64,000 bases of DNA from an uncultured Acidobacteriota bacterium (GTDB lineage: Bacteria > Acidobacteriota > UBA6911), in assembly GCA_963843575.1 (NCBI GenBank), contig CAWJKZ010000011.1:106341-170340 (forward strand). Reading direction: 5' to 3'. Shown here piece by piece: positions 17,182 through 64,000 of this stretch. How positions within the stretch are numbered: position 1 is the stretch's first letter; every line of letters begins with the position of its first letter. Below the pieces are notes generated by a model. The model was not told the origin of the DNA. It ran no database searches and worked only from the letters and a program-made list of their open reading frames with translations. Position numbers and translations under genes: made by a program.

Positions 17182-18495
17182 TCATCCTCGCAGCAAGCGA
17201 TCCAGTGAAAGGATGCTCAGCATCAGCTGGCGCGGGGGATGGTAGTTGTCCTGCCGCGCCACGTGGGGCTGCTGCACCATCTTGCGGCCTGAAAAGAGCA
17301 TGTAACCGGCCTGCCCGAGCTTCCTGCGCGAGAATTTCTCGTCGATTACCCCCTGCGCCATGCCGAAGAAGCGCGCCGCCCACTCGCTGCGCGTGCGCTC
17401 GAAGACCTTCACGCAGGCTACCAGGATTTCGTTGAGCGACCACAACGTCTTCATGTACTGGTACTCGCCGCGGAACCGGAACTCGAGGTCCGTGCCCACC
17501 GGCCGCTCAACAGGCCAGGCGTAGTCCCCCTGGTCGACGTTGACCCATTGCGACAGGCCTCCGTATACCCAGTCCCAACCCACTTCGATGTGGCGGCGGA
17601 TGCGGTCCGCGCCGAGCTCCCACAGCTTGAGGTCGTTGGTGCGTGAGGCTTCGTCCATCACCATCCAGAGCGTTTCGATGGAATGGCCCGGAATACACTT
17701 CGTCTCCTCTCCAGGCGGCCTGCTGAAGTCGTGGTTCAGGTTTTCGTTGTTCAGCCCGATGTCGGGATTGTAGTGCCTGTTGATGACCGCGTCGACGGAC
17801 TGTTGCGCTACCCGCTCGATCTCGGGGTCGCGCCACCGTTTGAGGAACTGGGTGGCGATGTTGAGGTTGACCATCCAGATCCCCTGCGGACGGCAACCCG
17901 GCCCCGGCGTGCCGGGCAGGACCACCGTGGGATCCTCGATGTGCCGGTGGAGCTTCCTGATCAGCTCCACCGCCGTGCGGCGGGATTCTTCGTGCTTTGC
18001 GGCCCAGGCGTACTCGAGCAGCCCTTCGGCCACGAAATACATGCCGTAGACGTCGCCTTCGAATCCCCGGCGCACCTGCCCGTCGCGCGCCAGCATCTCC
18101 GCCCACCAGCCGTCGGCCTGCGGGGCGTGGCGCAGCACGAACCCCCGCGTCCGGGCCGCGATCTCCAGGTGGCGTGGGTTTCTGCCGAAGTTGTTGTACA
18201 GGAAGCTGTAGACCCAGATCGCCCGTCCCTGGAACCAGAGCAGCTTGTCGGAGTGCACGACCGTGCCGTCGTAGTCGAGGCCGTGCATGACGCCCCCGAA
18301 CTCGTGGTCGACGCCGTGCCCGTCCCAAAACGGCAGCACCACCCCGAAGAGCTCGTCATGGTAGCGCTTGCGCAGTTGCGCGAGCGGCAGGCCCGCCAAT
18401 CTGGCGCCTGCCTCGGCCGCGCCTGCAGCTCCGCCCCAGCTGAGCGGTCCCAGCAACCCTGCCCCCGCAGACCCGATGAATGTGCGGCGTTTCAT
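17182..18495 (-). CDS. N-acyl-D-glucosamine 2-epimerase (AGE) family protein, TAT-exported
   Basis: MKRRTFIGSAGAGLLGPL twin-arginine leader; (alpha/alpha)6-barrel AGE-like sequence along the length. Confidence 0.8.
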   Translation of the reverse strand: MKRRTFIGSAGAGLLGPLSWGGAAGAAEAGARLAGLPLAQLRKRYHDELFGVVLPFWDGHGVDHEFGGVMHGLDYDGTVVHSDKLLWFQGRAIWVYSFLYNNFGRNPRHLEIAARTRGFVLRHAPQADGWWAEMLARDGQVRRGFEGDVYGMYFVAEGLLEYAWAAKHEESRRTAVELIRKLHRHIEDPTVVLPGTPGPGCRPQGIWMVNLNIATQFLKRWRDPEIERVAQQSVDAVINRHYNPDIGLNNENLNHDFSRPPGEETKCIPGHSIETLWMVMDEASRTNDLKLWELGADRIRRHIEVGWDWVYGGLSQWVNVDQGDYAWPVERPVGTDLEFRFRGEYQYMKTLWSLNEILVACVKVFERTRSEWAARFFGMAQGVIDEKFSRRKLGQAGYMLFSGRKMVQQPHVARQDNYHPPRQLMLSILSLDRLLRG

Positions 18496-53758: not shown

Positions 53759-54527
53759 GTTCACCCGAGACCTTCGGTCGAACCGGCGGGCCCGCTCTTT
53801 GAGCCCGAGTCCGAACCGGTGCTGCAGGTTCCGCGATCAGCCGGCCCTGCTCCAGGGCACTGTCGCCGTCGGAGGTGCGTAACGAGTGGCCCAGCACGAG
53901 AGCCTCGGCCTCGTTCATCTGCCAGACCGCCGCGCACACCGTGTCTCGGCCCAGCGCAGATATCCCCCTAAATGTCTCGAATCGACTTTCAGAGCCGATT
54001 CGCCGGCCTTCCCTCTGGTCGCGGGGGGCCGCGCAAGGCTATTCCGGTCTTGAACAGCATCTGAATCGATATGGCAACCTCTACGGCAAGGTCAGATTGC
54101 GCCCCTTGTTTTCAACAAGTTAGCGCGGCACCATTTTCTCACTTCTGGGACAGGTTACGAGGGTATGACATTGCAGTGAATCGTTTTCCGCAGAACAATT
54201 TCCTATTGCTCCGGGAACCCGACGGGTGTATCGTGCCGGGTTATAAGTATTGAGCTTTAGCGCCGAAACCAGAGCGCAACTCGCGCAAGACCTCGCAGCA
54301 CTCTCTTTCCGACGGAACACTTGGCAAAAACACACCTACGGTAGGTGTACAAGTGAATTCCACAAGGGCATTCTGTACGTCGACAACCATCAAAAGCATC
54401 GCACCTCACCTGTCCTGGTGTGCTGACCCAGGAACTCCACTGTGCCAAGCCGGCGATCGCGGCTGTGAAAAGTCGTGGAGCTCCTCTAGGAAATCCGAAA
54501 CCATCAGATGCGCTAGGGAGAAAACAC

Positions 54528-54857
54528 ATGGCGCACAACCACGGACATGAAGGTAATGAATATCAGATCAGAATTGTTCATAGGGACGGAACTGAGGAAC
54601 TGAGCGGATGGATGAACAGCACAGAGCAGGTTGCTCAGGCGATGGCTGCGGCCCAAAGGCTACAAGGTAGAGCTTACTGGCTTCTGGAACGAAACGTCCT
54701 GTGTCCCAACTGCTTAGACAGGGGACTCGGTCTGGAATATCCCATTATGGGTATCCCGTCTCCGCGATGCATGCCACACGACTCCCGTTATCTGCTGGTA
54801 TCGGGGTCGAGGAACCGGTCCGCGTTGGGCTTTTCAACGTTATGGCACACACTGTAA
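54528..54857 (+). CDS. Hypothetical protein (His-rich N-terminus, CxxC pair)
   Basis: RBS AGGGAG; MAHNHGHEGNEYQIRIVHRDGTEEL...CPNC...; lies in a lower-GC stretch; no known domain. Confidence 0.4.
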   Translation: MAHNHGHEGNEYQIRIVHRDGTEELSGWMNSTEQVAQAMAAAQRLQGRAYWLLERNVLCPNCLDRGLGLEYPIMGIPSPRCMPHDSRYLLVSGSRNRSALGFSTLWHTL

Positions 54858-55073: not shown

Positions 55074-55688
55074 TCAGGCTCCAGGGAGGATTCGCAGAAT
55101 GAGGAGTGTGATGTCGTCGTAGCGCGCGGCGGTGCCGACGCCGGCGACGTCGGCCACAACCAACAGCAGGTGCTCCGTCGCGGGCTGTCCCGGCGGCGCC
55201 GGCCGGAGAAAGGCGTCATAGTAGTCGCCGGAAACGGTATTGGCCGGCAGAGTCACGAAGGCGATGTCGGTGCCCGTCACCGGCGGAGGTGCTTTTGGCA
55301 CCAGCCACCCCTGTATTTCGCGCGCAATTTCCAGGTCCCGCTTCATCGTCACACGGTCGGCGAGCTCGAGACCCAGGACCAAAAGCACGAGCAACGCTCC
55401 GAGGATCATAGGCCCCTGGTCCTGTTCCTGCCTCCCGCCTGCCAGCAACAGAAGTCCCAGGATCAGGCAGACGCGTCGCGCAGCGGACAATTCCCAGAAC
55501 AAGGCCGCTGCAATTCGCGCAAACTGCTTCCACCGCGGCATGCGTCGGAAAGTTTCGGACTCCATTTTCCTGGAATACAGCCCATAGCTGGAACTTGCTT
55601 CGGACCGGAGCTGGCGCCAGAGGTCCTGCAGCGCTATGCCGTCCGTCAGCCGCTTCCATAAGCTCGGGCCTCTTCGCAATAGGCCCAT
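55074..55688 (-). pseudogene. PP2C-type (SpoIIE/RsbU) phosphatase remnant with internal deletion
   Basis: N-terminal TM segment, then GDYYD...LLLVVADVAGVG running directly into the domain-terminal YDDITLLILRI; ~130 aa of the catalytic domain are missing. Confidence 0.45.
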
Positions 55689-55839
55689 CGAGATCTCCTC
55701 CCGCTATGCTCCGTGTTAGGGCAGCTTACCACGCATGATGAGCTGGCGAGCGGATGCTCCTGCCGCCGCCTTCGCCCCAATGAAATCACAGTTCGGGAGT
55801 CTCCGTGGCGAGATTCCACATCTGGGAGGAGAGAGCCGC

Positions 55840-56102
55840 ATGACTAACAAATCCAAAACATCCGCTGCACACTCGAAGTGTGACCTCAGTCGCCTGTCGG
55901 ATCTGTTTAGAAAAACAAAACTTTAGTCGGTTGTTGCTTCATCGAAGTAGAGGTTGAGGCGGTGGGCGCGTCCGGATGGCGGACAACCTCATCGGCGAAC
56001 TGGCTCGGGCCGCCCTCAGGTGAAGCTCACGGTTATATCCCAACAGGGCAAGGAAGCAATCGTCGCCATTCTGGACGCCGATATTTCCCTCTTCCGTTCG
56101 TA
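55840..56102 (+). pseudogene. Crp/Fnr-family regulator remnant (fragments)
   Basis: MTNKSKTSAAHSKCDLSRLSDLFRKTKL* followed in another frame by ...LTVISQQGKEAIVAILDADISLFRS*; weak cNMP-binding-domain resemblance. Confidence 0.3.
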
Positions 56103-56235
56103 AAGAGCGTATAGTCATCTCAACTGTCTAGCGCCTTTATATCTTCTACCGAAGTGAGGCATTGACGCTACCCAGCTCAGGAGGTAGCCGGATAATGCCC
56201 GCCAAAGCGCAGGTTTACGAGGCCACCCCGCAAAT

Positions 56236-56402
56236 CAAAAATCGAATCTTAGTCGCGCATCTGGGGATGACGTCTTCATCCCGCAATAAAGGCCACCGGT
56301 TACATGTCGCTCAGTGAAGGAGACACGGTTGAATTCACCGTGGCGAGAGACCCGAAAGGTCTCCAGGCGCAAGACGTGGTGAAGATTCCAAGGATGACCT
56401 AA
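56236..56402 (+). pseudogene. Cold-shock protein (CspA family) 3' remnant
   Basis: ...GDDVFIP then frame change to ...AIKATGYMSLSEGDTVEFTVARDPKGLQAQDVVKI matches Csp C-terminal strands; no N-terminal KGxVKWFN segment upstream. Confidence 0.4.
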
Positions 56403-56426
56403 CTGAATGCTGAAAGGGAGGGGAAG

Positions 56427-56843
56427 ATGGCAGATACGGTTCGCAAAGTCGATTACTTCTACATTGAAACCCAGGATAAACCAGGGGAGGGGGCCAAGGT
56501 GCTCGCAGCGCTCCGGGATGCGGGCGTAAACCTTATTGGCTTTACTGCGTTTCCACGAGGGCGTTGGAGGGCTCAGATTGATTTTATCCCGGAGGATGCG
56601 GTTGCGTTTAAGACCGCTGCGAGGAAGGCTGGACTCAAGCTCAGCGCCAAGAAGACGGGCTTCTTGATCCAGGGGGAAGACCGACCGGGTGCGTTTGCCG
56701 ACATACTGCGTAAGCTCGCTGCGGTCAACGTCAATGTTACGGCGAGCGACGCCGCATGTGCCGGGGGAGGTCGCTACGGAGCGATGCTCTGGGTAAAACC
56801 CACTGACGTGCGGAAGGCGGCGAAGGCTCTTGGCGCTACATAG
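56427..56843 (+). CDS. ACT-domain-like small protein (hypothetical)
   Basis: RBS AGGGAGGGGAAG; 138 aa MADTVRKVDYFYIETQDKPGEGAKVLAALRDAGVNLIGF... with two beta-alpha-beta-beta-alpha-beta-like halves. Confidence 0.55.
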   Translation: MADTVRKVDYFYIETQDKPGEGAKVLAALRDAGVNLIGFTAFPRGRWRAQIDFIPEDAVAFKTAARKAGLKLSAKKTGFLIQGEDRPGAFADILRKLAAVNVNVTASDAACAGGGRYGAMLWVKPTDVRKAAKALGAT

Positions 56844-57105
56844 CGCAGGGCGAAGCCCGACCCCAGGGCGGCGTGGCGAGGTGCCGGGAGAGGCCCCCAC
56901 CGGCCGCCCTTTCTTGGTCTAGCAGCAGTGGTGGTGATGCCCGTCGGGGTGGGCACATCCTCAGGCAGGGGCCACGTAGCGCTCGGGCTCCTTGTCGAAT
57001 TCCTTCTTGCAGCTCGGGGAGCAGAACACATAGGTTTGCCCGGCGTGCGTACTCCTGTGCGGGGAGTTGTCGTCACGGTCATGCCGCAAACAAGGTCCTT
57101 GGCCC

Positions 57106-57776
57106 GCGTGCGGCTCTTTCGGCTGAGTTGTTGGAAATTCGCCCGTTTTTCTTTTGTGCCAGAACAGAATTGACCGAACGGTGTGTCCCCGGCGCGAAAG
57201 CGGTCGGCCTGGCGCTGCTGTATTCGGACCTCCGTATCGGCCCGAGTCAGGCTACGGCACAAATTCCGATTCTCGCTCCGGCGGGAATGCCAGCTACCGG
57301 CCCTTGTTCTCATGCGTGTGCACGGCCCTTTCGGGGTGGTCGGCGGCATCCTCGAGACCGTCCACGACCCCGGCCTCGTATGCCTGGTCCGTCTCGGCGA
57401 GTTCTCCAACGCTCTCCTCGTCAGCGTCCGCAATTTGCGAAAGCCCCTGGGCATCACCCGATTGCCCCGCGCTGTCAGAACTTGCTTCCTCCGGGTCCCT
57501 CCCAAGCTCATCGATCTGAGCCTCGTCATTCCGCAGTTTACGTGTCACCATGGACACCTCCCCAGAGCGCCAGAATCGAGTGCCGAATAGTGGCTGCTCA
57601 TTGGATGAATTTCGCCAACACTTGCATGGGGCTTCTTGGTCGCGGCGATGCTCTTCAATTTCGCGCGGTCCGTCACCATCGCCCGACGGAACCGGGTATC
57701 ACGCTGTACGTCGACGAGATCGGCCCTTCAGTGCTCTGGCACTTCGCGCCAGGCTCTTCGCGTCCCTGCTTGCGGA
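57106..57776. repeat. 671-bp direct repeat, copy 1
   Basis: Near-identical to 62426-63096 (a handful of substitutions and two 1-nt indels by eye); both copies yield identical ORF-track peptides. Confidence 0.9.
57294..57557 (-). CDS. Small acidic protein encoded inside the direct repeat (87 aa)
   Basis: GTG start; MSMVTRKLRNDEAQIDELGRDPEEASSDSAGQSGDAQGLSQIADADEESVGELAETDQAYEAGVVDGLEDAADHPERAVHTHENKGR. This is the only frame in the repeat with non-biased composition. Confidence 0.4.
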   Translation of the reverse strand: MSMVTRKLRNDEAQIDELGRDPEEASSDSAGQSGDAQGLSQIADADEESVGELAETDQAYEAGVVDGLEDAADHPERAVHTHENKGR

Positions 57777-58549
57777 CCCATCGCACACCTCCCGTCGGTG
57801 TGCATTGCCAAGTATTCCGTTGGAAGAGAGTGCTGCGGGCGGTAATTGGGTGAGTTGCGCTCTAATTTTCGGCGATGACATTCAACGCTCACGGCAAGCT
57901 ACACCCGTCGGATTCCCCGATCTATGGGAAATTGTCCACGGGAAATTGTTCTGCAGATCCGCAGACGATAATTCACTGCGATACCATGAGCTTATAACCC
58001 GTGGTTGCCGCTCCTGAAGTCGGATGAGCAATTCTGAACACGCAGTTGAGCAAGATTAAACTGACGCGTGAATTCCCCCGGAGTACAAAGAGTCAGGCCA
58101 CAAGCGAGAATCTGGCAGGAGGCCAGGAGCCAGAGGGGCGTAATAGGAGGCTTTCAGGCTGAAAAGAAGGGGTGCGAGCGGCATCACGGCCTGTTGCGGT
58201 TGAGGGTGGGAAATTGATTGGCTGAAAGCATCGAGGGTTTCGATGAAACCCTCAGCTTGTTTCGCCTGTCCACCGCGGTTGTCCTCTCATCGCTGGGGCT
58301 TCGTGGAAGGGGGGGGCGTCTTTCCTGAGCCCTATTGGAAACAGCAAAGGCGATGGCCAGCCTCAGCGGAGGTACTCCAGCGGCAGGCCATCGCTCGTTT
58401 GGTGCTTGCACGACTACGCGCGGTGGGGAGGTGCAGTAGCAATCTGGAACAAGGCGCCTATCGCGTGGTTTGATGAATCGCAGAATGCCTTAACCCTCAA
58501 CAGTGCATACACGAGATCGAAGCCAGTCCTGAGCTGAAAGGAGATTCCC

Positions 58550-58717
58550 ATGTTACTGATCTTGTTGATTATTGTCCTGCTGCTCGCGTTCGGCGGCGGC
58601 GGTGGGTATTACGGATATAAGAGATGGGGGACGGGCGGAGGCGTCGGGATCGTCGGGCTTGTCCTGATCATTCTGGTGCTCTTGTACCTGTTCGGTGGAT
58701 TGCCTCTGCCCCGTTGA
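58550..58717 (+). CDS. Small hydrophobic membrane protein (DUF3309-like, 55 aa)
   Basis: RBS AAAGGAGA; MLLILLIIVLLLAFGGGGGYYGYKRWGTGGGVGIVGLVLIILVLLYLFGGLPLPR. Confidence 0.55.
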   Translation: MLLILLIIVLLLAFGGGGGYYGYKRWGTGGGVGIVGLVLIILVLLYLFGGLPLPR

Positions 58718-58811
58718 AGTTCAGAGGGGGTTATGGGCTTGAACGGCCCAAGGCACCGAGGAATAGGGTCATCTTTGTGGACTAAATGCTATGCCTCATC
58801 AAAGGAGAAAT

Positions 58812-59360
58812 ATGAAAACGCTGAAACTGTGCTTAACCTTGCTCGCGCTACTCCTAGTCGGGATCCTCGTAAGTTGCTCAGGGACGGCCACGCGATCCCC
58901 CGACATTTCTGACAGCATCCGCAAGTCGCTCGATCAAGCCGGCCTCAAGGATGTCTCCGTAAGTCAGGATCGCGACAAGGGTGTAGTGACCCTTGGCGGA
59001 CACGTCGCAGCTGACGCGGACAAGTCACAAGCCGAATCCATTGCGAAATCAATCGCAACTGGGCAGGTTGTCGCGAACCAGATTGCCGTGCTTCCTCCCG
59101 GTGGTGAGAGCGATGCAAAAGCGGTGAACTCTGCTCTCGACAAGGGTGTCGAGAACAACCTGGACGCTGCTCTCATCCAAAACGGGCTTCAGGAGAGTGT
59201 CAAATATGATGTTAAAAATGGTGTGGTCACGCTAACTGGAGACGTCAACTCACAATCCAAGCGTGCGCAGGCCGAGAAGATCGCTGCTTCAGTTCCGAAT
59301 GTTCAGCAGGTGGTGAACAACCTGCAGATTAAGAACCAGAAGGCCACCACGTCGAAATAA
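58812..59360 (+). CDS. BON-domain lipoprotein (OsmY-like)
   Basis: RBS AAAGGAGAAATATG; lipobox LVSCSG; two BON-like modules (IRKSLDQAGLKDVSVSQDRDKGVVTLGGHV...; LIQNGLQESVKYDVKNGVVTLTGDV...). Confidence 0.8.
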   Translation: MKTLKLCLTLLALLLVGILVSCSGTATRSPDISDSIRKSLDQAGLKDVSVSQDRDKGVVTLGGHVAADADKSQAESIAKSIATGQVVANQIAVLPPGGESDAKAVNSALDKGVENNLDAALIQNGLQESVKYDVKNGVVTLTGDVNSQSKRAQAEKIAASVPNVQQVVNNLQIKNQKATTSK

Positions 59361-59534
59361 GAGTTACCGTAGTCGTCGGTGTCCTGGATCAAAACGTCAG
59401 GCTGGCTGGCTCGAACCACGTGCACGGCGGCGAGGCTGTGCTTCGGCTCGCCTCAAATTGCTCCAGGAATCACAGAGGCGCCGCCGCATTCCCGCCCGGG
59501 CCCGGGCCGGAACGCCAAAGACGCCGTGGTCGCC

Positions 59535-60308
59535 CTACTCGTCCCAGTCGCGGGGCTGGCCATAGTGGCCGTATAGTTGTGTCTCGTAGGTGCGCTCGAC
59601 AGGTCGGGCTGGATCGTACTCTGGACAGTTCTTGATCTGCGCGCGCGTGACGGTCACGTGCAATTCCGAATGGTCCCAGTCCACCCGCTTGATCCAGGCG
59701 GTCGCCACCAACACCTTCTTGCCTAGCCACCAGTTGCTTGTGTCCGCGATCATGTAGCGGATCGCCCAGGAGTAATCGTCCACAAGAAAGTCCGCCACAT
59801 GGCCGACGTCGCCGTCCTTCGCCTGGATGTGGTAGCCGGTCACTGCGCGCGAACTCCGGAGGTGCGGGTCGCCGCGCTCCTTGGTCTCCCAGTTCCAACG
59901 CCGCTCGTGCTCGAGGTCCGCGGCACTCGGGGCCGGCCCGGACCCAGAATAGGGATAGGAATACGCGCCCCAGAGATAGGACCCCTCCCAGTACGGGTTG
60001 TAGCCATAGTAGCCATAGTAAACGGCCTCGTGCTGCCGCGAGACCGGCTTATCCGTGTCGATATCTGGACTCTTCTCCACCTGGGCCTTCGTCAGCGCGG
60101 CCGTGATGCGCTTGTGCTCCCAGTCCATTGCTCGGAAGGCGATTGGCGAGAGGAGCACCTTACGTTCTGAAAGCCATCCCAACGTGTCGACCACGACGTA
60201 GCGCACCGTGTGGCTCACGTCGTCGAAATAGGCCTCTTTGACCGTGCCGATGTCCCCGTCGGTGGCCCCGATCGTGAACCCGTAGAGATCGTTCATGCTC
60301 CTAAGCAT
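59535..60308 (-). CDS. PRC-barrel domain protein (tandem PRC barrels)
   Basis: RBS AAGGAGG; MLRSMNDLYGFTIGATDGDIGTVKEAYFDDVSHTVRYVVVDT and HIQAKDGDVGHVADFLVDDYSWAIRYMIADT PRC-barrel motifs, with a Tyr/Gly-rich linker. Confidence 0.7.
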   Translation of the reverse strand: MLRSMNDLYGFTIGATDGDIGTVKEAYFDDVSHTVRYVVVDTLGWLSERKVLLSPIAFRAMDWEHKRITAALTKAQVEKSPDIDTDKPVSRQHEAVYYGYYGYNPYWEGSYLWGAYSYPYSGSGPAPSAADLEHERRWNWETKERGDPHLRSSRAVTGYHIQAKDGDVGHVADFLVDDYSWAIRYMIADTSNWWLGKKVLVATAWIKRVDWDHSELHVTVTRAQIKNCPEYDPARPVERTYETQLYGHYGQPRDWDE

Positions 60309-61054
60309 CGCATCCTCCTTTGTGGATTGTTGCTGTCCCCACCGTAACTCTGGCCTCTGACGCCCGCCCGGCCGGACGGACCGGGTCGGACCGAGTGCAA
60401 AAGAGCATGCCTGTTGAGGCCTGTGAGGCTTGGAGTAGACCAACGCCGATCATACAGGGCGGACTATCCGGCTGGTGGTCACCAATCCCACTTTAACCAT
60501 ACCTTTGTGGGACTCACTTTTCAGCGCACTATTGCTCACACGTTTGGTCGCGATTGCTCATCCCATTCACAATGACGGCCCCCGTCCTTTGCCCCAACTT
60601 GACCGGCTTTTCATGTCACCTCCGGCACGACCCGACCGGTAAGGGTCGCTCCGACTCACCGGAAACCGCAAGCTCGAGCCTTCCTGCGCTACTGCTGCGC
60701 TAACTGCCAACCCCAATAGGGCAGCCGATCCCGGCTGTTGTCCCTCGCCCATATCCCGGTGTCGGCGTCAGGGTTTCGCCGCGACTTTGGGGGTGGAGGC
60801 TTGATCCCCTCGAGCCGCAGGTAGCCTGCAGCGGCGCGAACGCGCACGGCTTCGGTCTTGTCATCAAACACTGGGACCAGATCGGCTGCCAGAGCAGGAT
60901 CGTTGCGCAGTGCGATGGTAACTCGGGTCCAGTCTGGGGGCACGGGTGCTCCTTCCAACTTCGTTCCAGCCATTGTAGTCGGGTCGGATTCTGGCTGATA
61001 GCGGAATGCACCCTCCGGAATTCAGTTCGATCTTGGTTGCAGTTTGTTGTGCTT

Positions 61055-61102
61055 GGATTCTCGCGGGCACAGCTCGGGACAGAACTGGGGTATTTTGAGG
61101 CA
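61055..61102 (+). repeat. Conserved ~48-bp intergenic motif, copy 1
   Basis: GGATTCTCGCGGGCACAGCTCGGGACAGAACTGGGGTATTTTGAGGCAT matches 63495-63543 with ~6 substitutions. Confidence 0.6.
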
Positions 61103-61575
61103 TTTGGAGTGGGGTTCTGGTAGCTGTTTATGCCCGAAGAACCTTGACGGACGGCAATACCGGCGGCTGCCCGATTCAGCGCCGCGATTGGCGAGCGCGC
61201 CGCCGCCCAGATGATGGTGTTCAGTGACCGTTCGACTGCATGGGTATACCGTTGTGTGCCGCCAAAACCCGCTGCTGTCGACAGGGAAAGTGTGCAAAAA
61301 TTCCATTCCCGGGTACATCGATCTGGCGCATAATCCCGTTCGTGACTGGTCTTAAGCTCGGCTCAGCGGCGGCAGACGGGGCGGAATTGACGTAATACCC
61401 CAGATCGGAAGCAGGATCCATACCGGAACCTCCGACAATGCAGCTTGTTTTTCCTGTCGGGGGGCTCCTCCGTTCCGATGTAGGTGAGCGGAGTGGCCTT
61501 CGGGGTGGCAGGCGGGGTGGCGCTCGTGCTATGGCGAGAGGGGCGCCGGTAAGCGGCTATTCAAGGAGGGGCACC

Positions 61576-61752
61576 AATGTCATTCGGCATTTACATTGTG
61601 GGGTACATCATACTGATCGTCGGCCTGGCCATGGGTGCGCACTTGCTCCACATACCACAAAGGTGGATCGTGGTGGGCGTTATTTGCCTGGTCGGCCTGG
61701 CCATCCTCCATGGCGTGACGGCAACCCGACAAAAGGATCCGCCATCCAAGTG
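61576..61752 (+). CDS. Small membrane protein (58 aa, two TM)
   Basis: RBS AAGGAGGGG; MSFGIYIVGYIILIVGLAMGAHLLHIPQRWIVVGVICLVGLAILHGVTATRQKDPPSK. Confidence 0.55.
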
Positions 61753-62000
61753 ACAAGGAGGCGCGAATATCGGTAGATCGATAGGGATTTCTATCTCGGG
61801 ATGGTTGGAGAGGCAGGTCGAAGCCCGTGTCACCAACTCCATGACAAAGAGCAGGTAAACGGTGGCCAACCCGCAGACCATTCGCGCCCTTCTATGGCGG
61901 CCTATCAAAACTGGATGGCGGAGGCACCCGGCATCGGGAACGAAACCGTACGCGGTAGGAGCGGTGAGGTCGACGCGACGGGTGCTGGGTGCTGCGACAT

Positions 62001-62207
62001 CTACTTCTTGGCCTTCTTCTTCGCTGTACGCTTCTTGTCTTTCTTCGAGAGCCCGGCTTCAGAGAGCGCGATAGCAATGGCCTGTTTCCGATCCGTTACC
62101 TTCGGCCCCTTCTTGGAACCAGAACGCAATGTGCCCTCCTTGAACTTGTGCAACTCGTCCTTGACGCGTTTCTGCTTTGCTTTCTTAGGTGTACTCGGTT
62201 TCGGCAT
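62001..62207 (-). CDS. Small basic Lys-rich protein (68 aa, stress-protein-like)
   Basis: MPKPSTPKKAKQKRVKDELHKFKEGTLRSGSKKGPKVTDRKQAIAIALSEAGLSKKDKKRTAKKKAKK; codon usage is consistent with coding. Confidence 0.55.
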   Translation of the reverse strand: MPKPSTPKKAKQKRVKDELHKFKEGTLRSGSKKGPKVTDRKQAIAIALSEAGLSKKDKKRTAKKKAKK

Positions 62208-62425
62208 AACTCCCTCATAGGGTCGTCAGACAATGGGTAAAAGACGTTAGGCAGCTGCGGATTGGCCGGGTTGAGGTCGACACATTTCACCTATGCAACG
62301 ACGTACAGTTGCGTACCGAGCGCCGAAATCAGCGCATCAGATTCGCGGTCGAACTTGAGGACCTCTCCAGAACTGAGCGCACCGTGCTCCGCCAGATCAC
62401 GGTCAGCAAAGGGAAATCTGATGGC

Positions 62426-63096
62426 GCGTGCGGCTCTTTCGGCTGAGTTGTTGGAGATTCGTCGTTTTTCTTTTATGCCAGAACAGAATTGATCGAACAG
62501 TGTGTCCCCGGCGCGAAAGCGGTCGGCCTGGCGCTGCTGTATTCGGACCTCCGTATCGGCCCGAGTCAGGCTACGGCACAAATTCCGATTCTCGCTCCGG
62601 CGGGAATGCCAGCTACCGGCCCTTGTTCTCATGCGTGTGCACGGCCCTTTCGGGGTGGTCGGCGGCATCCTCGAGACCGTCCACGACCCCGGCCTCGTAT
62701 GCCTGGTCCGTCTCGGCGAGTTCTCCAACGCTCTCCTCGTCAGCGTCCGCAATTTGCGAAAGCCCCTGGGCATCACCCGATTGCCCCGCGCTGTCAGAAC
62801 TTGCTTCCTCCGGGTCCCTTCCAAGCTCATCGATCTGAGCCTCGTCATTCCGCAGTTTACGTGTCACCATGGACACCTCCCCAGAGCGCCAGAATCGAGT
62901 GCCGAATAGTGGCTGCTCATTGGATGAATTTCGCCAACACTTGCATGGGGCTTCTTGGTCGCGGCGATGCTCTTCAATTTCGCGCGGTCCGTCACCATCG
63001 CCCGACGGAACCGGGTATCACGCTGTACGTCGACGAGATCGGCCCTTCAGTGCTCTGGCACTTCGCGCCAGGCTCTTCGCGTCCCTGCTTGCGGAG
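62426..63096. repeat. 671-bp direct repeat, copy 2
   Basis: See copy 1 (57106-57776); offset 5320 bp. Confidence 0.9.
62613..62876 (-). CDS. Small acidic protein, second identical copy
   Basis: Identical 87-aa product to 57294-57557. Confidence 0.4.
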   Translation of the reverse strand: MSMVTRKLRNDEAQIDELGRDPEEASSDSAGQSGDAQGLSQIADADEESVGELAETDQAYEAGVVDGLEDAADHPERAVHTHENKGR

Positions 63097-63494
63097 TGCT
63101 GCTTTGTTTTCGACACCAGCTTCTGAGACTGCTGAACGGTTTCCGCTTCCTTCGCATTCACGCGTGCAGTGATCTCTCGTCTTTCACCTGTGTTTGGCAT
63201 ATCTTTTATGGTCTCTCATTTCTGCTATGCAAGACGTTCAGTTTTTGCACAGATCCGCTACCCTCTCCAGGAACAGTACATCTGATGATGGCATATGACG
63301 CATTGCACGGTCTGTTCACAATTGCTCACGGTCTCCTTTCGCCTATTCCGTCAATCCACGATATATCGTGCTTTCGCCCGGCATGAGTCGTTCGCAGAGG
63401 TGGCACATTTCTGCTGGTGAGAACGACCCTATCCGAGAACAGTGTTCGATTCGGCCTGATCCTTGGCCTGAGTTGGTTGTGCTGGGATACGATC

Positions 63495-63543
63495 AGATTC
63501 TCGCGGGCACAGTTTGGGACACAGCTGGGGTGTTTTGAGGCGT
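63495..63543 (+). repeat. Conserved ~48-bp intergenic motif, copy 2
   Basis: AGATTCTCGCGGGCACAGTTTGGGACACAGCTGGGGTGTTTTGAGGCGT. Both copies are followed ~80-520 bp later by GAGGG(G)CACCAATG (RBS plus ATG). Confidence 0.6.
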
Positions 63544-64000
63544 TATCGAGATTGCTTTAAAGGGGATTTGCTGCCCGTGAGTCCTTGACGGATGGGCGCG
63601 TGGTGCGCGAGGGCACCAATGGCGCTACCGACAAGCGGCCTGACCCGCCGGTTCAGAAGGGACGTCGGGCCCTGTGCCTCGTCGCGGCATGAGGTGTGCG
63701 CGGGTGACCACCTGCGTCCTCGCGATCAGGCGAAGAACCGGGCATCGGGCCCCGCTTCCGCATATGCTCAGGTTTCCACTCCCTTGATTTCGGCCGAGAT
63801 TCCTATCGTTTCCCGGCTCCAACCGACCATGTTTGGCCTCGTTGCCTGTCGGTCGACTATCTTCACCTAACGATCGATTCCTGAGATCTTAACGCGCGGC
63901 CGAGCGCCCCATCTGCGCGTACAACTCGCCGGCGTACTGCTTTACCATCCGTCGAGCGGAGAATTGAGGCGCCACTGTCCGTATCGCCTGCTTCACGATC

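Follow-up and report, generated by a model that had tools for sequence, protein, structure and literature searches.

Two near-identical direct repeats in an Acidobacteriota genome: probable gene conversion between older paralogues of a small-gene module

How do two almost identical direct repeats, each encoding the same small acidic protein, come to lie a few kilobases apart in a bacterial genome? This question is raised by a 64-kb stretch of DNA (64,000 nucleotides (nt), hereafter the window) from a contig of an uncultured Acidobacteriota bacterium. The original prediction, made from the letters of the window, described the pair as the product of a recent duplication that frames a cassette of stress genes. 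Comparison with related loci leads us to a different explanation, which we consider the probable one: the repeats would be an older pair of paralogues homogenised by gene conversion, and not a fresh duplication, an insertion sequence (IS) or a composite transposon. We favour this reading because the two copies are closer to each other than to their positional orthologues, and because their homogeneity ends at a boundary within the repeat, leaving a mosaic of identical and diverged sequence.

A repeat search, a MAFFT alignment and a blastn comparison of the window with itself agree on a single direct repeat, present at 57105-57776 (copy A, 672 nt) and 62425-63095 (copy B, 671 nt), both read on the minus strand. 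The copies are 98.96% identical (E = 0), and the blastn self-comparison found no third copy in the 64-kb window. The two near-identical direct repeats with a minus-strand acidic open reading frame (ORF) had thus been recognised correctly, while the positions first given for them, 57106-57776 and 62426-63096, are one base off. Copies A and B differ at seven positions, by six substitutions and one 1-nt indel. Six of these differences fall within 57136-57180; the seventh, at 57501, is a synonymous change in codon 17 of the acidic ORF. The divergence is therefore a mosaic, with 0.17% (one difference) over 596 nt against 7.9% (six differences) over the last 76 nt, a tail that occupies 57105-57180 in copy A and 62425-62499 in copy B (minus strand). 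That six of the seven differences should fall in a tail of 76 nt out of 672 has a binomial probability of P = 1.3e-5, or P = 1e-4 when the tail is allowed to evolve 1.5-fold faster, the rate measured against the related loci L001 and L003. Relative to these same loci, derived states are found in the tails of both copies, two of them in copy B, and so both lineages have had time to change.

The repeat begins at codon 36 of a second, smaller reading frame (ORF60), runs through a spacer and the acidic gene, and ends in a 3' region. The acidic ORFs encode 85 amino acids (aa) on the minus strand at 57294-57551 (copy A) and 62613-62870 (copy B), and the two proteins are identical. With an alternative GTG start two codons upstream (at 62876 in copy B) the ORFs would extend over 57294-57557 and 62613-62876 and encode 87 aa; the ATG at 57551/62870, which follows a GGAGG by five bases, is most likely the start because the homologues are 85 aa long. 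About 189 nt are duplicated 3' of the ORF, in line with the ~190 bp of conserved downstream sequence noted at first. Besides, 225 nt upstream of the ORF belong to the duplicated unit, on which the original prediction was silent. This upstream part is not simply non-coding: it consists of the 3' end of a real gene for a 60-aa basic protein, followed by a conserved spacer, with copy A being a truncated and chimeric version.

The full arrangement is seen at copy B. There, ORF60 lies at 63018-63200 on the minus strand, begins MPNTGERREITARVNAKEAETV... and crosses the repeat boundary, which cuts it after codon 35. It is unannotated and encodes a 60-aa basic protein with an isoelectric point (pI) of 11.8. 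By tblastn, ORF60 is found without disruption or indels in some 50 related loci, with 62-98% aa identity. Its ratio of non-synonymous to synonymous substitution rates (dN/dS) is 0.43 for the whole frame and 0.29 for codons 1-37; it is on the strength of this conservation that we treat ORF60 as a real, previously unannotated small basic protein. The module of copy B comprises a conserved upstream region (63201-63603, minus strand, present only at copy B), ORF60, a 147-nt spacer (62871-63017, minus strand, duplicated in copy A at 57552-57698) and the acidic gene, and it is found in ~50 related Terriglobia loci. The upstream region is 92.6% identical to L025 out to 63603, and 80-95% identical in many loci out to ~63360-63440. 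L025 matches 62507-63603 and then 61458-61033, whereas L001 and L003 match 62332-63268 and resume at 63262-63361 after a 314-nt segment that is missing from the window. Repeat copy B is thus the 3' part of a larger syntenic unit, and since homology to related loci continues into both of its flanks, while the flanks of copy A do not match these B-type loci, copy B would represent the original context. Judged by these comparisons, it is an intact module in a conserved setting.

Copy A, on the other hand, is 5'-truncated and chimeric. Of ORF60 it keeps only the last 25 codons and the stop (fragment ORF60', 57699-57776, minus strand), codons 1-35 being absent together with the upstream region proper to the module. 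Fused to this fragment, at 57785-57945 (minus strand), is a copy of the upstream element of orf145, a 107-aa gene located at 54528-54857. The original element lies at 54185-54348 (plus strand) and is conserved in L024 at 17616-17738; the fused copy is 76% identical, in inverted orientation, to 54195-54348 (local alignment z = 44). The orf145 element and ORF60 share the 10-nt sequence TCCRCAAGCA exactly at the junction, a microhomology (TCCGCAAGCA / TCCACAAGCA) which fits a microhomology-mediated join. Because the module's own upstream region is replaced here by an orf145-type element, copy A may be under different transcriptional control than copy B. We also considered the module's upstream region and the orf145-type element as members of one family and rejected this, the two being unrelated (z = 0.2).

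The acidic gene at the A position is not peculiar to this genome. The 24-kb contig L024 matches the A locus collinearly at three points, in the same order and orientation: orf145 (54193-54850, corresponding to 17738-17111), a Crp remnant (56018-56078, corresponding to 16428-16368) and the acidic gene (57270-57588, corresponding to 8874-8558), with an intact Csp gene between these matches. The 2-kb contig L045 runs collinear to either side (340-612 with 58216-57949, and 1619-2062 with 54884-54391), and its positions 779-1373 match 57778-57183 of the window, beginning at the identical TCCGCAAGC point of truncation in ORF60. Over the 319 nt shared by all, copies A and B are 99.7% identical, while copy A has 93% identity with L024 and 90% with L045; copy B is 94% identical to L027. 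In a neighbour-joining tree, A-type and B-type copies are interspersed and not separated. Near-identity is not the default for paralogues of this family, since a related metagenome-assembled genome (GCA_052145155.1) carries two of them on different contigs that are only 83.5% identical. The copies of one genome are thus closer to each other than to their positional counterparts in others, and a homogenised tract stands beside diverged sequence, a combination that is the usual mark of concerted evolution by gene conversion (PMC6053082).

Could the pair nevertheless stem from a single, very recent event, in which a 672-nt piece of B was copied into the A site with no later conversion? Copying by microhomology-mediated illegitimate recombination or template switching would account for the 10-nt microhomology at the upstream junction, for the truncated YHS-domain gene at the downstream junction, and for the sharp homology boundaries, past which no significant residual similarity was found; the cluster of differences at the end would come from error-prone repair synthesis at the junction. 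It would also suit the observation that none of 105 related loci has two acidic-gene copies within 6-10 kb, and hence that the close spacing of A and B is specific to this genome. One-sided error-prone synthesis does not, however, predict that the source copy B should also have two derived states in its tail, and L024 and L045 already hold the acidic gene at the collinear A position, L045 with the same ORF60' junction and yet 9% diverged. With the mosaic divergence, the derived tail states on both sides and the A-locus counterparts taken together, the recent duplication first proposed is not upheld, and we rate it as unlikely.

Under gene conversion between older paralogues, the sequence of events could be as follows. 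A small-gene module common among the Terriglobia of peat and soil would be present in the genome as two paralogues, with copy A at a second locus that carries the acidic gene in other organisms too, and fused there, through the 10-nt microhomology, to a duplicate of the orf145 upstream element. Non-reciprocal homologous recombination, that is gene conversion, probably in the direction from B to A, would recently have overwritten one copy, and the last 76 nt would have escaped the latest conversion and diverged by ~8%. The tufA/tufB genes and the ribosomal RNA (rRNA) operons are examples of dispersed bacterial paralogues in concerted evolution. As with these, copies A and B are closer to each other than to the positional counterparts in other genomes, and their homogeneity ends at a tract boundary and covers a stretch of a few hundred bases. 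Unlike the classical genes, which are highly expressed and essential, the gene concerned here encodes a small, uncharacterised, disordered acidic protein; one of the two copies is chimeric, being truncated and joined to a foreign upstream element, and conversion is deduced from sequence. Prokaryotic cases of concerted evolution by gene conversion have been surveyed (PMC6053082).

Several observations weigh against this explanation. Both L024 and L045 are metagenomic contigs, and L045, at 2 kb, could itself be chimeric; the comparison is confined to these two A-locus contigs. Moreover, the place taken in the window by the orf145-type element is occupied in L045 by 160 nt of B-type upstream region, and the history of the A junction must therefore include at least one extra event. 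Dating from the tail is crude, as the tail holds only six differences. Finally, a scan with the sigma-70 consensus found no promoter-like site for either copy. Terminator-like sites were no commoner than in shuffled sequence.

A further concern is that a single copy, or the copies of two strains, might have been placed twice in the contig during assembly. The source is evidently a metagenome-assembled contig, and a related assembly, L107, breaks at 58218, near copy A. An artefactual duplication is, however, normally exact or without one set of flanks, while the copies here differ at seven positions and each has unique flanks on both sides. Furthermore, these flanks are matched independently by foreign contigs, those of A by L024 and L045 and those of B by L025 and L001. 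We therefore regard an assembly artefact as extremely improbable.

The absence of a transposase, pointed out from the start as evidence against a conventional IS, is borne out. Pfam and NCBIfam searches found no transposase or recombinase in or beside the repeat, the supported ORFs of the unit being the acidic gene and the ORF60 fragment, and no inverted repeats bounding the unit were seen in the repeat search. Between the flanks of A and those of B there is no significant similarity and no target-site duplication, and the unit has no plasmid or phage matches. No mobile-element genes are present at 44-56 kb, a segment occupied by ordinary metabolic genes. The pair resembles a composite transposon or an IS-bounded cassette in that a few kilobases of accessory-looking genes lie between two direct repeats. 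It differs in that the repeat lacks a transposase, terminal inverted repeats and a target-site duplication; the repeated unit is a piece of an ordinary gene and, as copy B, lies in a conserved context. An integron cassette fits no better: as read by eye, the boundaries (after ...CAC, followed by TCCGCAAG, and after ...CACGCG) are not GTTRRRY, and copy B lies inside a conserved operon; no integrase was found among the ORFs scanned, attC sites not having been sought with a dedicated model. The unit was also considered as a discrete mobile module with homology ending exactly at the repeat ends, an impression which proved to be an artefact of using copy A as the blastn query, as the flanks of copy B stay homologous.

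The genes between the repeats had been named as encoding a DUF3309-like membrane peptide, a BON-domain lipoprotein, a PRC-barrel protein and a peptide with two transmembrane segments (2-TM), and Pfam supports the domain names, with matches to DUF3309 (E = 1.5e-6), two BON domains (4e-23), PRC-barrel (1.8e-8) and DUF6496 (2.3e-12). The BON protein is OsmY-like, with a lipobox-like LVSC, and the 2-TM peptide matches no Pfam family. Upstream, the ACT protein is confirmed by Pfam, and the Csp remnant is confirmed as well and is frameshifted. The general stress flavour ascribed to the neighbourhood is thus reflected in the domain names. The notion of a cassette fares worse: in 105 related loci the intervening genes occur singly and in varying order and orientation. 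Near the acidic gene of relatives, PRC is found in eight loci and BON in four, along with TM2, DUF6496 and orf145. On this comparison, the intervening genes are a loosely conserved stress-type neighbourhood and not cargo.

Concomitantly, we weighed the stronger proposal that the repeats define a mobilisable or amplifiable stress cassette, a 5.3-kb unit whose biological role would be to cycle between excised, single and tandem states. Direct repeats with about 600 identical bases offer RecA ample substrate for deleting or amplifying what lies between them, and it is plausible that the 5.3-kb interval could be excised or amplified by homologous recombination. The stress-type domains of the intervening genes speak for the proposal, and the putative gene conversion would mean that the copies interact. 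However, neither a tandem junction nor a deletion junction (with the region upstream of B running directly into the YHS flank) is seen in any of the 112 loci compared. The intervening genes lie apart and differently ordered in relatives, and no recombinase is encoded nearby. Besides, the 99%-identical strain represented by L107 (ENA ERZ25039554 contig_72788, 4709 nt) starts at 58218 and matches the window to 60918, past which identity falls to 85% and an IS-like transposase fragment follows. Its sequence shows strain-level rearrangement inside the inter-repeat interval and diverges within the supposed cassette. Such a role for the repeats is very improbable in our judgement.

The surroundings of copy A bear marks of decay. 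A YHS-domain pseudogene (56961-57104, minus strand; Pfam YHS E = 4e-11 in the 3' frame) abuts the copy; it has no start codon and contains a 1-nt frameshift, and its KDLVCGMTV motif is in another frame, right at the repeat edge. It belongs to a cluster of decayed genes at 55074-57104, together with a Crp-like fragment (55954-56103), the frameshifted Csp gene (~56150-56402) and a PP2C/SpoIIE-like fragment with a GDYYD motif, the last judged by eye and having no Pfam match. The segment at 55.0-57.1 kb is a decaying, rearranged region. The two orf145 elements (54185-54348, plus strand, and 57785-57945, minus strand) form an inverted pair that brackets a 3.4-kb stretch rich in gene remnants. On a larger scale, the segment 52000-64000 has a G+C content of 0.55-0.60, compared to 0.61-0.71 over most of the window, and consists of very small genes packed between long conserved intergenic stretches.

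What, then, does the duplicated gene encode? The acidic protein has a pI of 4.15, a net charge of -16, a grand average of hydropathy (GRAVY) of -1.02 and 9.4% Gly. About 500 homologues with 74-96% identity are found in Terriglobia metagenomes, every one annotated as 'hypothetical', and with E values up to 1e-3 the family extends to 614 clusters at 50% identity. A core motif, SAGQSGDxQGLS...ESVxELxExxQAxEAxxVxGxEDAxDHPE, is strongly conserved, and the dN/dS of the ORF is 0.26. No match was obtained in Pfam, NCBIfam, PHROGs or a PDB profile search. AlphaFold2, run with a 48-sequence alignment, returned a mean predicted local distance difference test (pLDDT) score of 60.8 and no secondary structure, and the protein is predicted to be disordered. 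At the A-type locus of L045, the acidic gene (1005-1259) has otherwise invariant residues changed (SAGQSGDAQGLS to SAAQSGDGQGLW) and a weakened ribosome-binding site; these changes suggest that the gene is decaying where conversion has not rescued the copy.

Hydrophilins, as reportedly defined by Garay-Arroyo and colleagues in 2000, have more than 6% Gly and a hydrophilicity index above 1. The Gly content, hydrophilicity and disorder of the acidic protein all fall within the composition expected of hydrophilins. Small size, a GRAVY of this order, the Gly content and predicted disorder liken it to hydrophilins and to late embryogenesis abundant (LEA)-like proteins (E. coli YciG, CsbD/YjbJ-type), as do neighbouring genes of the OsmY/BON, CsbD, Csp and PRC-barrel types. 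In contrast to those proteins, it has no sequence relation to any described family and a strongly acidic character, and the high conservation of its 55-residue core would be unusual for a disordered protein that acts purely as 'filler'. From composition and neighbours only, we infer a stress-related, charge-based role, possibly exerted together with a basic partner.

Distant relatives of the acidic protein offer a parallel for such a pairing. In these, a Lys-rich, histone-H1-like N-terminal tail of ~100 residues is fused to the acidic domain; apart from such tails and one probable mis-joined GNAT fusion, no fusion partner is found among the 614 distant relatives. Six of them (P0257, P0220, P0244, P0254, P0230 and P0237) combine a Lys/Ala/Pro-rich H1-like tail and the acidic domain with a C-terminal EVPEDDVPxEY, a tailed family that has no name in any library searched. 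The fused Lys-rich tails echo the separate basic ORF60 of the window, with no sequence similarity between ORF60 and the tails. ORF60 itself is found beside the acidic gene in 50 of 91 loci, within the close clade only, and is absent from all distant relatives.

Adjacent small ORFs of opposite charge, in varying contexts and with more than one copy per genome, also bring to mind type II toxin-antitoxin systems. Here, however, ORF60 and the acidic gene are separated by a conserved 147-nt spacer instead of being overlapping or coupled, ORF60 is missing from many loci (L029 and L034, for instance, have the acidic gene without it), and distant homologues fuse the Lys-rich tail and the acidic domain. 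The pairing is thus not obligate, and neither ORF60 nor the acidic protein matched a family (PADLOC was not run).

The spacer is kept across 34 distinct sequences, with indels that are not multiples of three. RNAalifold found no covariation or compensatory pairs in these 34 spacers, and the minimum free energy is unremarkable (z = +0.7); the spacer is probably regulatory sequence rather than structured RNA. The 189-nt 3' region, which is conserved in only a subset of relatives, gave no structural signal in a single-sequence analysis (z = +1.0). A structured RNA in the duplicated non-coding parts was rejected on these z scores and the lack of compensatory pairs, together with an Rfam search that returned nothing at E below 1 in the repeats. 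We also discarded a 44-aa ORF that overlaps the acidic gene at its start; this ORF shows no codon-position bias and has frame-breaking indels.

Two observations concern the upstream side of the module. The 314-nt segment mentioned above lies between the upstream region and ORF60 in most related loci (L001 9291-9604) and encodes a 58-64-aa coiled-coil ORF (e.g. L001 9332-9526) with a good Shine-Dalgarno sequence; it is missing in the window (~63262-63268) and in the closest relatives, and its edges carry the imperfect repeat GGAGAGG/GGTGAGG. In addition, a dispersed short element with the core GATTCTCGCGGGCACAG occurs in the window at 61033-61104 and 63473-63544, in four places in L025, in L027 at 2022-2099 and in L045 at 443-455. 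Its copies are 76-88% identical and, in gene orientation, lie upstream of the orf94-PRC pair and of the ORF60-acidic module; it could be a regulatory site common to both, or else a small repeat element.

As a genome feature, dispersed paralogues homogenised by gene conversion are routine, and the present pair would be a new instance of a known phenomenon. It carries a useful caution, namely that the near-identity of repeats does not date a duplication. Of modest value are the description of a widespread, uncharacterised family of acidic disordered proteins with a strongly conserved core motif, that of an unannotated basic partner ORF and of the unusually conserved non-coding DNA around it in peat and soil Acidobacteria, and the example of a gene copy gaining a different upstream element. 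A bolder idea, which we consider improbable, is that ORF60 and the acidic protein form a previously undescribed two-part stress module, in which the acidic partner would neutralise or chaperone a basic nucleic-acid-binding partner, or the two would form charge-driven condensates, with the dosage and regulation of the acidic protein being tuned by a second, promoter-swapped, conversion-kept and amplifiable copy. The module would deserve experimental work should the acidic protein turn out to be a major factor in stress or desiccation in these soil bacteria, which are abundant and difficult to culture.

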